Shown: piece after piece, positions 11,206 to 64,000 of the stretch
Layout of the letters: every line of letters begins with the position of its first letter
Position numbering within the stretch: the stretch's first letter is position 1
Source: Camelus ferus
Lineage: Eukaryota
Direction: 5' to 3'
Assembly: GCF_009834535.1 (NCBI RefSeq)
Contig: NC_045696.1
Coordinates: 87,484,001-87,548,000, forward strand
Length of the DNA stretch: 64,000 nucleotides
Notes under the pieces: model-generated
Database searches by the model: none
The model's input: the letters and a program-made list of their open reading frames with translations, nothing else
Told to the model about the DNA's origin: nothing
Translations under genes and position numbers: made by a program

Positions 11206-11285
11206 CTATAAAATAAATAGTACATCCAAGAAATTCAACAAGCTATTCTTTTAAAATCTGAAAAGCACAAATAGTTTTTAAATTC

Positions 11286-11433
11286 TTTTTTTTTTTAACG
11301 TTTTTTTAGAGGGGAGGAAGAGGTAATTAGGTTTATTTATTTAGTTAGTTATTTTTAATGGAGGTACTGGGGATAGAACCCATGACCTCAGGCATGCTAA
11401 GCATACACTCTACCACTGAGTTATACCCGCCCC
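11286..11433 (-). mobile_element. Camelid-type tRNA-derived SINE (vic-1-like)
   Basis: Reverse complement reads ggggcgggtataactcagtggtagagtgtatgcttagcatgcctgaggtcatgggttctatccccagtacctcc with A/B boxes and A-rich tail; same family as 63471-63648. Confidence 0.85.
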
Positions 11434-58125: not shown

Positions 58126-59173
58126 CTATTATAGGTTTGTTTAAAAGAAAAACATGTTAAGAAAAAAATATATAAATCTTCCTATATCACTATCTTGAAC
58201 CAGAACCCCAAGTTGTGGCATCTTAATAAAATTTAAGAATAAAGGAACTACACTAAGATGAAGCTAACATTCTGATTGAATGCCAAGGAGGGTCTTAGGA
58301 AAAGTCTATCTTTGAAGCATTAAGATTGTATTTTTAGGAACAGCTTAGAATAGTTTGAATGAAAGGATTGAAACTCCACTTTAACTGGCAGGACCATTAC
58401 ATTCCTGTTTTCCTGCCCTCAGTTCTCACCTCCTCTCATGGACACACTGCATGTATAGCTATGTACGAAACAATTCCTCTGGAAAAACCTAAAAACTGGT
58501 GGAGGGACCCTTTCACATCAGACAAATGAGCAGGAAACCACACAGAAGTATGCAGGAAAGACTGAGACAAGACACAATCTGTCTATGAACCCCATCCTAG
58601 GGCTGTGACCCCTAGTTGGGAAGGAACACACAAACTGGAGCTTCTCTCTGAGGAACAAGAGGGTGGTGCCCCACACCAGGTATCCCAGCTTTTAAGACCA
58701 GCCCTTCAAAGATGACCCCCAAAACATCTGGCTTTGTAAACCAACACAGCTCACATCCTTGAGACCCACAGAGTTGTGGCGAAATGAGGAACGTCTCTTA
58801 AAGGGCTCATGCCCAGATTCACCCACCCCACGGCCCAGCACAGAAGCTGTCCTTGAAAAAGAGCCCAGAAATCACGTGAAAGGAATCACTTCCTAATTTT
58901 AAAGCTTTGGTTTAAGGGGAAGAAGCCTGTTGTGATCATCTTTGGGAAGGGAGGCTGGTGGGCACCATGGGCTTGCTCTCCCTCTGCCTTGCTAGAGTTG
59001 GCAGGTGCAATTTTTTTTTAACTTTTTTGCAGGCACCATCTTTATGTGCTAACTGGCAGGTGCTATCTTGTGCTCTCTATGCCTGGCTAAAGCCAGTTGA
59101 CATCTTTTTTTTTTCTTTCCCTTGTGTCTTCTCTCTCTCTCTCTCTCTCTTTTTCCTATTTCTTTTCCTCCCC

Positions 59174-59177
<4 letters not shown>

Positions 59178-59216
<39 letters not shown>
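59178..59216. repeat. Poly(T) tract in L1 5'UTR
   Basis: Direct observation. Confidence 0.95.
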
Positions 59217-59217
<1 letters not shown>

Positions 59218-61596
59218 GCGAGTATCATCTTTCTATTGCCCCTCTGCCATGCTCCAGAGCACCAGTATCTCCCAGAGGGGTGCATCTACACACATCTGGT
59301 GCCCTGGTCTTTACAACTGGTAACACAGTTTTTGCAGCTGCCACCCAGGAGAAATCCCTTGGTCTCCTGGCTCCGGAGGCCAGGAGGCAGGCTTGTGTTC
59401 CTGAGTCCCATGGTACTGTAACAATTGGATACATGGTTCTTGGCAGACAACCACTCCCAGGGCACTGCACAGACAGCACACTGCTTCTCCACGAAGGAGA
59501 AGGCTTCCAGTTTGCCACACTTCAGGGGCCCATGGAGGTGCTCTCAGGAATGAAGCCTGGTGTATGCAATCAAGACCCCCTCCCACTTGCTGATATCTTC
59601 CGTAAAGGAAATTCTATGCTTCTGTGGGATCCTGATTTTTGCAGCTGCAGCCAGGAGACAACTCTACATCTCCTGGCTCTGGTGACCAGGGGGGCCTTCC
59701 GTGCAAATATCCCATAGGACTGGAACCAATGGACAAGTGTTCTCCAATAGCTACTGCCCCCCAGGGCACAGCAAGAAGCAACAGACACAGGAGCTCAATC
59801 TTTCTGGAAAGAGACCTATTACCTTATCACTGTATCTTCAGCCTGAAGGGCAGGCTTCTAATTAAACACACACTTAAGGGATATAAACCTTTCCTAAGAC
59901 CTTAGAATGTGGGCACTGTGTTTTGTACTCTCTCTTTCTCTGCCATATTCCACAGCATCAAGGTCTCTTGGAGGGGAGCTCTTATATGTGTTTGGCACCC
60001 CAATTTGTATATCTGGTGCCCGGTTTTTGTGGCTGCCACCCAGGGATATGCCTTGATCACCTGGCTGTGTTGGTCAGGAGGGCTTACGTTCTTGGGCCCC
60101 ATGGGACAGTAACAACTGGAGGGACAGTTCCTGACAGGCTGCCATACCCAGGGCACTGCACAGACAGCAGGCTGAAACATACCGCCAGCCTTTCTGTGAA
60201 AGAGGCCCATGTGTCTGTCCTGGAGCTTTGGCTTTAGGTTTGACACAATCTAGAGGGTATGGAGGTGCTTTCAAGGAACAAAGGCTGGGGGAATGCCATC
60301 TTTGAGCTCTATTTCTGCCTCACTACAGCTCACTTGTATCTTCTATAAGGACCCTGCACACTCCTCTGGAGCCCTGAATTTTGAGACTTCTGCCTAAGGG
60401 ACATTGCCAGATTGCCTGGCTCCAGTGGCCAGTGGAGTTTACACTTCTGGTGCCAGGGGTATATATATTTGCATTCTTTAAAAGCTGTTGCCTGTGGGTC
60501 TAGATTCCAATCAGTCTAAGTCTAGGTACTGGATAGAATCCTCCTTTTAGGGACACTGACTGGTCCTCAACTACCAGGAGCTATAAAAGGAAAATAGGTT
60601 ATTTGGATAATCACAAAGGTTTGAGAGACAACAAAGAGCTAGGGCAGGGTTGAATGATAAGGTTCATCTCCTGCAAAAGGGCAACATGTCTATACTGGGA
60701 GAAGTGCCTCTTCCATCTAATGCAAGGAAACTGACACAGAGAGTTAAGCAAAATAAAGAAATAGAGAAATGAATTCCAAATAAAAGAATAAGATAAAATG
60801 TTAGGGGAAAAACCTTTATAAAAAGGAGATAAATAATTTACCCAACAAAAAGTTTAATGTAATAGTCATAAAGATGCTCATCAAACTTGAGAAAAATGGA
60901 TGAACACAGTGAAAACTTCAACAGAGAGATAGAAAACATAAGATAGTTCCAAACAGAAGACACAGGACTAAAGAATTCAATAACTGAACTGAAAAGTGCA
61001 CTAGAAAGTTTCAACAAAAGAAAACTTTTGTTCATGAAGCAGAACAAAAGAGCAGTGAATTCTAAGACAGGGCAGAGGAACTCACCAATCAGAGCAGCAA
61101 AAAGAAAAAAAAAGAATTTTAAAAAGTAAAGGCAGCTTAAAGGTCTTATTGGTCAACATTGAATGCACTAACATTCACATTGTAAAAGACCCAGAAGGCA
61201 AAGAGAGAGAAAAATTGGCAGAAACCTTATTTGAGGAAATAATGGTTGAAAGTTTCTCTAAAGAAACAGACATCCAGATCCAGGAAGTCCACAGAATTAC
61301 AAATAAGATGAACTCAAAGAAACCCACAGTATTATATTATAACATATAATACATTGTAATTCAGATGTCAAAACTTAAAGACAAGGATGGACTCTTAAAA
61401 GCAGCAAGAGAAAACTAACTTGTTACATACAAGGAAACCCCTGTAACCCCTACCAGTAGAATTTTCAGTGGAAACAATTGTAGGCCAAAGGGAGTGGTGT
61501 GATGCATTCAAAGGGCTGAAAGAAAAAAAAAATTTTCAACCAAGAATATGTAACCCAGCAAGATTATCATTCAGAATTGAAGGAAAGATAAAGAGT

Positions 61597-61820
61597 TTTC
61601 CAAGGCCAGTTATTCCTGGGTCATCTTCTGGTCCCCGGAGGCCTGCAACAGGATCTCCTTAGTCTCTTTAGCTTCTTGATAGTCTCTGGCCAATTTTTCA
61701 TTCTAGCTCTGGGCATGCTTCCATTCCTGTTCAAGTTCCAGAGCCCTGTGGGTCTGTTCTTCCAGTTCTTGCTGAACCTTCTTAGTATATTCCTTGATCT
61801 GCTTCAGTCTCTCTAGCAGC
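61597..61820 (-). pseudogene. MSN: Moesin mRNA fragment (coiled-coil region) inserted antisense into L1 ORF1
   Basis: Minus strand translates [72 protein letters not shown], matching moesin [74 protein letters not shown] as recalled. Confidence 0.92.
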
Positions 61821-63470
61821 AAGAGCAAAAGCTAACAAAGTTCATCACCACTAAACCAGCCTCACAAGACAAATTAAAGGGGCTTCTTTAAGCTGAAACA
61901 AAGAGTACTAATTAGTAATAAGAAAACTTACAGAAGTGTAACCTTGCTGGTGACAGTAAATATATAGTTAAGGTAGTGGACTAATCATTTATGAAGCTAG
62001 TATGATGGTTAAAAGATTAATGGAGCAAAAATAACTAAGTACAGTAATTAGTAAGGAATATATAAGATAAAAAGATATAAAGTTTGACATCAAAAACATA
62101 AAACGTGAGTGGGGGGAACATTAAAAATGCAGAGTTTTAAAACATTCAAACTTAAGTTGTCATCAACTTAAAATAGATTGTTTTAAGATACAAGTTGTTA
62201 TATATAAGCCTCATGGTAACCACAAAGCATAAATCTCTAATAAATACAAAAAAGATAATGAGAAAGGAATCCAAGATACCACTAAAAGTCATAAAACCAC
62301 AAAGGAAGAGAGCAAAAGGAGAAAGGAACAGAGAAACTGCAAAACAGGCAGAAAACAGTTAACAAAAGGGCAGTAAGTATATATCTATCAATAGTTACTT
62401 TAAATGTAAATGAAGTAAATTATGCAACTAAAAAACAGAGAGTGGGTGAATGGATTAAAAAAAAAAAGACCCATCTATATCCATCTGTATGTTGCCACTT
62501 CAGATGTAACGATATATACAAACTTGAAGTGAAGGGATGAAAAAATACATTCCATGAAAATGAAAATCAAAAGAAAGCTGGACTAGCTATACTTATATCA
62601 GATAAAATAGATTTAAAACAGGTAGGAGACAAGGGTATTACATGTTGCTAAAGATGTCTATCCAACAAGAAGATATACATTTCTAAATATTTATGCACTC
62701 AACATAAAAGCACCTAAATACATAAAGCAGATATTAATAGACCTAAATGGAGAAATATATAGCAGTATGATAATAGTAGAGGACTTTAATACTCCACTTA
62801 ACCAATGGATAGATCATCCAGAAAGAAAATCAGTAAAGAAAATGTTGGCTTTAAATGATATGCTAGATCAGATGGACTTAATAGATTTATATAGAACTAA
62901 ATAGATTTATATATTCCATATAAAAGAAAGAGAATACATATTCTTCTCAAGTGCACATGGAACATTCTCCAGGATAAATTATATGTTAGGCCACAAAACA
63001 AGTCTTGACAAAGTTAAGAAGACTGAAGTCATACCACCCCTCCTTTCTGACCACAATGGTATGAAGCTAGAAATCAAACACGAGAAGAAAACTGGAAATG
63101 ACAAAGATTGAAGCAGTAATGAACATAGCAGAGACTAAAAAGACAATAGAAAGGATCAACAAAATCAAAGCTGGTTCTCTGAATAGATAAACAAAACTGA
63201 AAAACATTGAGTTAGACTCACCAAGAAAAAAAGAGAATTTAAATAAATAAAATCAGAAATGAAAGAGGACATTTTACAAGTGCTATCACTGAAATACAAA
63301 TGATTATAATAGGCAACTACATACAATTATATATATCAACAAATTGGACAACCTAGAAGAAATAGATAAATTCTTGAACTATACAATGTTCCAAGACTAA
63401 GTCATGAAGAAACAGGAACTCTGAACAGACTAATTACTAGTAAGAAGAATGACTCAATTAAAACCTTCCT

Positions 63471-63648
63471 GGGTGGAGGGTATGGCTCAAGTTGTAGTAA
63501 AGCATGCTTAGTATGCATGAAGTCCTGTGTTCAATCCCCAGTAGCTCCTCTAAAAATACACAAACCTAATTACCCCTCCACCAAAATGAAATAATTAAAT
63601 AATACTATAATAAATAAATAAAATTTTTTAAAAATAAAAATAAAAAAT
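63471..63648 (+). mobile_element. Camelid-type tRNA-derived SINE (vic-1-like) inserted in L1 ORF2
   Basis: gggtggagggtatggctcaagttgtagtaaagcatgcttagtatgcatgaagtcctgtgttcaatccccagtagctcc head, AT-rich tail, flanking near-TSD aaaaccttcc/aaaacctccc. Confidence 0.85.
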
Positions 63649-64000
63649 AAAAACCTCCCAACAAACAAAAGTCCAGGACCAAATGGTTTCACTGATTAAT
63701 TCTACCAAACATTCAAAGAATAATTAATACCAATTCTTCTCAAACCCTTCCAAAAAAATTGAAGTGGAAGGAGCACTTCCAAACTCATTTTTATGAGGCC
63801 AGCATTACTCTGATGCAAAACTAGACAAGGTTATCACAAGAAAAGAAAATTACAGGCCAATATCCCTGATGAACATGGAAGCAGAAGTCCTCAACAAAAT
63901 ATTAGCAAACCTAATTCAATAATACTTTAAAAATATCATACCCCATGATCAAATCAGATTTATCTGAGGATGCAGGGATGCTTAAACATCTAAAAATTGA

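Follow-up and report, generated by a model that had tools for sequence, protein, structure and literature searches.

The ORF1 of an old L1 element in the window, i.e., the whole 64,000-nt stretch of DNA analysed here, is interrupted by an antisense fragment of the moesin (MSN) coding sequence. The best reading of this insert, and in our assessment a probable one, is that it represents a class 2 templated insertion, that is, repair of a break with an RT product after the L1 had landed. Events of this class have already been described (PMC4516963, PMC5110952), and the insert would be a natural, well-preserved instance of them.

A spliced moesin fragment in antisense orientation

The insert, whose length of 223 nt counts the hexamer shared with L1 (61597-61602), has the following parts.

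61597-61819, minus strand: spliced MSN coding fragment, 223 nt, truncated at both ends, with two in-frame stops and no indels
61768-61819, minus strand: last 52 nt of the upstream MSN exon (44/52 to the exon; separate BLAST match to L003)
61607-61767, minus strand: complete 161-nt MSN exon (137/161)
61597-61606, minus strand: first 10 nt of the next MSN exon (10/10)

Without gaps, the insert matches three consecutive joined MSN exons of its own genome (locus L002, G000:C37) at 191 of 223 positions. These are presumably exons 9, 10 and 11 in the human MSN numbering. The alignment score reaches 318 with the joined exons versus 232 with the genomic MSN sequence. The intron that precedes the 161-nt exon matches the insert at 10 of 52 positions, compared to 44 of 52 for the exon, and the 10 nt beyond the second junction correspond to the start of an exon, not to an intron; this decamer (61597-61606) occurs once in 40 kb of the MSN locus. 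Given that introns are missing from the alignment at both joins, two splice junctions are crossed and both ends of the insert lie inside exons, which rules out a single-exon or genomic (unspliced) origin. The original prediction placed an antisense MSN fragment in L1 ORF1 and deduced an mRNA template from the crossing of at least one exon junction; both claims are borne out by the 191/223 match and by the L1 domain identified in the flank (see below), and the caveat that the fragment might fall within one MSN exon does not apply to a piece that spans three. As for its proposed limits, 61597-61820, the start is correct, whereas the exact end is 61819.

The donor exons are intact, and L002 contains four exons with GT/AG ends. 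In its last exon, 36 of 36 aligned residues are identical to moesin in the PDB (1ef1_C), and it is on this match that the moesin identity is based, because a PDB search with the 53-aa exon retrieved only ezrin, with a weak match. Over the 161-nt exon, two other ERM loci, which we take to be radixin and ezrin, agree with the insert at 94/161 and 85/161 positions, respectively, as opposed to 137/161 for MSN, and accordingly were rejected as donors. Thus, the best match is indeed MSN, contrary to the possibility, raised at the outset, that it would be another gene. The minus strand of the insert reads as an ERM coiled-coil peptide interrupted by the two stops, and this peptide matches the Pfam family ERM_helical with an E value of 3e-7, below the curated cut-off of the family.

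A DNA search of the genome with 61597-61822 yielded two matches, the insert itself and G000:C37:5330207-5330370. No other MSN copy with the exons of the insert was detected with the insert, the 161-nt exon (as DNA and protein), the upstream exon (as protein) or the insert with its flanks as queries; among the best-scored candidates, the queries without flanks matched the gene, the insert and the two paralogs alone. This search scores the best candidates alone (2 to 9 for the MSN queries), so that a decayed or deleted donor retrocopy could escape, and the upstream-exon protein query missed the insert's own 52-nt part, which sets a limit for short pieces. The following exon matched the gene alone as DNA and, as protein, one extra locus, L048 (G000:C35:11481078-11484212). 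In this retrocopy, the exons are joined, and each is 87-97% identical to its counterpart in the ezrin-type locus on C8; the search is thus able to see retrocopies. Given this affinity and the lack of a match to the insert, L048 was rejected as the donor.

These results bear on the possibility that the patch was copied from DNA, the source being an older processed pseudogene of MSN, which either disappeared afterwards or is absent from the assembly. Templated insertions from DNA are known (the non-RMDR class of PMC4516963), and the genome does carry an ERM retrocopy, the ezrin-type L048. Nevertheless, neither DNA nor protein queries covering three exons detected an MSN retrocopy among the scored candidates. 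Furthermore, the divergence of the insert from MSN is no greater than that of the host L1 from its family, which would leave little time for an intermediate MSN copy. We therefore regard a DNA donor as quite unlikely. A literature search for a moesin pseudogene or retrocopy turned up no primary report. The original prediction likewise considered a pre-existing MSN retrocopy closer to the insert, or further L1 copies with the same insert; neither was found among the scored candidates.

The host L1 element

The L1 sequence continues on both sides of the insert.

~58450 (start approximate)-61602, plus strand: left part of the host L1, 5' region and broken ORF1, aligned to related L1 copies
61824-64000, plus strand: right part of the host L1, end of ORF1 and broken ORF2, resuming in register with related copies

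The element (G000:C1 ~87,542,450-87,550,350) is near-full-length and extends ~2.35 kb past the window, with the 3' end near L007:2350. Colinearity between the right part and another L1 copy extends over 1.6 kb, and a stop-free stretch on the plus strand (61447-61659) matches the Pfam domain Tnp_22_dsRBD (E 5e-12). The element is decayed throughout, with stops and frameshifts, and no credible match for a target-site duplication was identified around it. A recombinant origin of the host L1 from two elements is unsupported: the two halves share non-majority bases with the same relatives only weakly (Spearman 0.42, p 0.053, 22 copies), a correlation that is uninformative rather than negative. With respect to host gene context, none of 26 other long ORFs tested, out of 71 listed in the window with at least 75 aa, yielded a Pfam match at E 0.01, a search in which short exons would be missed.

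Several additional features were noted in this element. A SINE with an A-rich tail (63470-63659, plus strand) resides in ORF2 and is flanked by a 10-nt duplication (63460-63469 and 63650-63659, 9/10); similar sequences are found at 11275-11426 of the window and in L003. Retention of the duplication and tail by the SINE is a weak control for the insert because the SINE is younger. The 5' region of the L1 is interrupted at 59100-59217 by (CT)n and a 38-nt run of T, which could have originated either by slippage or as the tail of an element inserted in antisense, and repeated units that are ~71% alike occupy 59240-59480, 59630-59730 and 59940-60170.

The junctions and the empty site

A flank search of the genome, with the best 40 of 2082 candidates scored, gave 75 matches, from which 28 other L1 loci were fetched, 27 of them with a right-flank match. 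In none of these 27 loci is the insert present at the same site. An L1 subfamily carrying a captured gene piece is thus not what we observe, the insert being found once besides the MSN gene. For the tally of junctions, duplicates (L022 and L036) were removed, and 25 of the remaining 26 copies were counted, a few of them out of register via indels. L021 and L022 (G000:C37:76,759,596 and 76,355,710), which are 400 kb apart, have identical scores and junction sequences, indicative of a recent duplication or an assembly duplicate.

In the related copies, the empty site reads TTTCCA, then GACA (15 of 25), then the right flank. TTTCCA is the majority sequence at all six columns and is exactly preserved in 8 of the 25 copies. 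Compared to this site, the junctions are as follows.

61597-61602, plus strand: 6-nt microhomology TTTCCA, identical in L1 and antisense MSN, confirmed in the donor
61817-61823, plus strand: right junction; after the CAG that terminates the donor match comes CAAG, in place of the GACA of related L1s

The hexamer, originally noticed as about 6 nt common to L1 and MSN at the left junction and now confirmed in both the donor and the 25 L1 copies, sits at the mRNA-3' end of the insert, where cDNA synthesis would start. At any one junction, the probability that antisense MSN matches this L1 flank over at least 6 nt by chance is 0.0005, versus 0.0028 in the sense orientation. On the right, L1 resumes at most 4 nt from the point where it stopped, with 0-4 L1 bases lost or changed, in accord with the claim that few L1 bases had been lost. 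This junction might reflect either the loss of 1-2 L1 bases with a 2-nt addition or the replacement of 4 nt, two possibilities that are ambiguous after ~12-15% decay.

The insert has no target-site duplication of at least 5 nt, with at most a 2-nt CA readable on both sides, and no poly(A) or A tract at its ends; the L1 endonuclease motif TTTT/A is absent from the break on both strands. A very short duplication could have eroded, given that no duplication was detected around the host L1 itself either. These observations uphold the view that the insert did not arise by canonical processed-pseudogene formation. A related scenario appears very unlikely, namely that the insert is what remains of an L1-endonuclease event in which an MSN retrocopy arose by internal or twin priming and the half primed at the poly(A) either failed to form or was later precisely deleted. 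Twin priming does yield inverted, internally primed cDNA of similar size (median 292 bp in somatic insertions; PMC12016303), and there is a T4 run on the minus strand ~7-10 nt to the right of the junction. The L1 bases between the junction and this run are retained, however, and the break itself is not at TTTT/A; there is no sense half, poly(A) or duplication, and a clean later deletion would have had to spare both flanks.

Age, decay and presence in read sets

Outside CpG and the shared hexamer, the insert shows 25 changes in 205 sites. In a first count, based on a MAFFT alignment of 23 L1 copies, some of them badly aligned, 38 changes were expected at L1 rates, making the insert about one third younger. 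A second count, for which we retained, post hoc, the 1760 columns that were free of gaps, showed 70% agreement and lacked a CpG signature (197 changes), gave 28.8 expected versus 25 seen, a ratio of 0.87 (interval 0.56-1.24). By these counts, the insert would be as old as the L1 or up to about a third younger, and decay of ~12-15% suggests an age of tens of millions of years. The age of the insert is thus inseparable from that of the L1, and the empty site is known solely from paralogous L1 copies.

Non-synonymous sites have accumulated 15 changes against 16.2 expected, and synonymous-type sites 10 against 12.6. Because both kinds of sites changed alike, there is no selection for coding; with change counts near the neutral expectation and two stops, selection on the insert was rejected, and the insert decays neutrally, without any hint of a function. 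The absence of strand bias (13/68 G and 7/45 C changed outside CpG) led us to reject APOBEC-type cDNA editing as well.

In 20 of the 24 sequencing runs listed, a fraction of 0.94-1.00 of the words from 61400-62000 (of which the insert makes up 37%) is present; the listing ranks holders, so that empty alleles would not show there. After exclusion of 8 runs marked as possible sources, 12 runs from 7 studies and three organisms carry this segment. The insert is not an assembly artefact.

Probable repair of a break with moesin mRNA

We propose the following sequence of events. The L1 would have inserted first and the moesin fragment later. A chromosome break would have occurred in the germline or early embryo inside the already integrated L1, and the left broken end (...TTTCCA) would have paired with 6 nt of moesin mRNA or of a copy of this mRNA. 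Then, ~217 nt would have been copied toward the 5' end of the mRNA, across the two splice junctions, and end joining would have linked the new strand to the right side of the broken L1, with loss or addition of a few bases, after which the patch would have decayed neutrally. L1 ORF2p acting in trans is the usual suspect as the enzyme behind such patches. Direct priming of the broken end on RNA, as opposed to the capture of a free cDNA, is a tentative part of this proposal: the microhomology falls on the side expected for mRNA priming, but with a captured free cDNA, too, it would be on this side in 1 of 2 cases.

The observed properties agree with those of class 2 templated insertions, namely a distant, intact donor (donor on C37, insert on C1), no duplication of at least 5 bp and no poly(A), and marks of end joining (6-nt microhomology on the left, 0-4 nt lost or changed on the right). 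The insert is also an intron-skipping mRNA piece truncated at both ends, as in RMDR. At Cas9 breaks in mouse zygotes, spliced internal pieces of Pcnt and Inadl without poly(A) have been captured (PMC4516963), and experimental patches are 73-414 bp long with a median of 191 (PMC5110952). Reports on L1 at Cas9 breaks and on repair in cis (PMC9237045, PMC12065846) leave this reading unaffected.

The original prediction favored microhomology-mediated, RNA-templated break repair or template switching. The former is supported, whereas ordinary first-strand template switching does not fit because the insert is antisense and L1 resumes in register afterwards; such switching gives chimeras of the same orientation (PMC13174262). 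A twin-primed mRNA/L1 chimera was rejected as well: its antisense partner should form the 5' end, and here ~3 kb of sense L1 lies upstream, in register.

A different form of switching deserves consideration, albeit as an unlikely one. During second (plus) strand synthesis of a full-length L1, the L1 RT could have left the L1 cDNA at the 6-nt match, continued on moesin mRNA for ~217 nt and then returned to the L1 at nearly the base of departure, so that the newborn element would contain an internal antisense cassette. This scheme predicts the antisense piece, the microhomology at the left end and intact L1 on both sides, and is compatible with the ages of the insert and the L1 under the second count (ratio 0.87), but not readily with the cruder one, under which the insert is about one third younger (25 versus 38 expected). 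An 18-bp piece of GPD2 mRNA that ends a non-classical L1 insertion has been interpreted as an RT switch to cellular RNA (PMC1920257). The scheme requires, however, two jumps with a return within 4 nt, and the antisense mRNA/L1 chimeras that have been catalogued are 5'-end fusions ascribed to twin priming (PMC13174262); no primary report of such a mechanism was found in a literature search. Moreover, the other patch detected in this genome is in the sense orientation.

That patch (L045:1205-1465, G000:C1 ~48,031,000-48,031,270) is mRNA-derived and resides in another L1 ORF1, sense to L1. Its matches include two separate segments of a single C18 locus and several copies devoid of introns, with intronless relatives on C2, C3, C8 and C35 that are possible DNA donors. 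One sense and one antisense patch are compatible with orientation-blind patching (n=2).

By itself, one dead fossil has little significance. Its value lies in providing clean data on a natural event: the sister L1 copies supply the empty site, so that the junction is still readable after what may be tens of millions of years. Were such patches compiled across the genome, one could estimate how often breaks in the germline are mended with mRNA, and the orientation of the patches together with the side of the microhomology would discriminate between direct RNA priming and the uptake of free cDNA. Should antisense inserts of the same age as their host L1 turn out to be the rule, template jumps during synthesis of the second L1 strand would be suggested; such jumps, if real, would constitute a chimera class outside the catalogue of PMC13174262 and provide a fossil view of a poorly understood step.

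Comparison with known systems

Processed pseudogenes generated by L1 TPRT resemble the insert in the removal of introns and neutral decay, but the insert lacks the mRNA 3' end, the poly(A), the duplication and the endonuclease site. The mRNA/LINE-1 chimeras (Law and Burns 2026, PMC13174262) similarly join an mRNA piece to L1, with antisense cases among them; those described are 5'-end fusions inside one duplication, whereas the MSN piece is internal and L1 resumes after it. The non-classical, endonuclease-independent L1 insertions (Sen et al. 2007, PMC1920257) share the lack of a duplication and tail, the off-consensus site, microhomology and filler bases. In the cases reported there, however, L1 RNA serves as the patch, whereas in the present case a cellular mRNA patches an L1 target, with a loss of at most 4 nt from the target.

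RMDR (2015, PMC4516963) likewise involves an internal, intron-skipping mRNA piece truncated at both ends, without poly(A) and with a single microhomology; the Pcnt case is also reverse-oriented. The MSN insert differs in being a natural germline fossil rather than the product of a Cas9 break, such that the break and the enzyme are not observable.

With class 2 templated insertions (Onozawa and Aplan, PMC5110952), the insert shares the short patch, within the 73-414 bp range, the distant intact donor, the absence of a duplication, poly(A) and TTTT/A, and microhomology with small losses or additions at the joins; spliced cDNAs are among the TSIP donors listed there. Unlike the members of that class, the MSN insert is ancient, appears to be common to three organisms rather than polymorphic, and sits in a repeat for which sister copies reveal the empty site.
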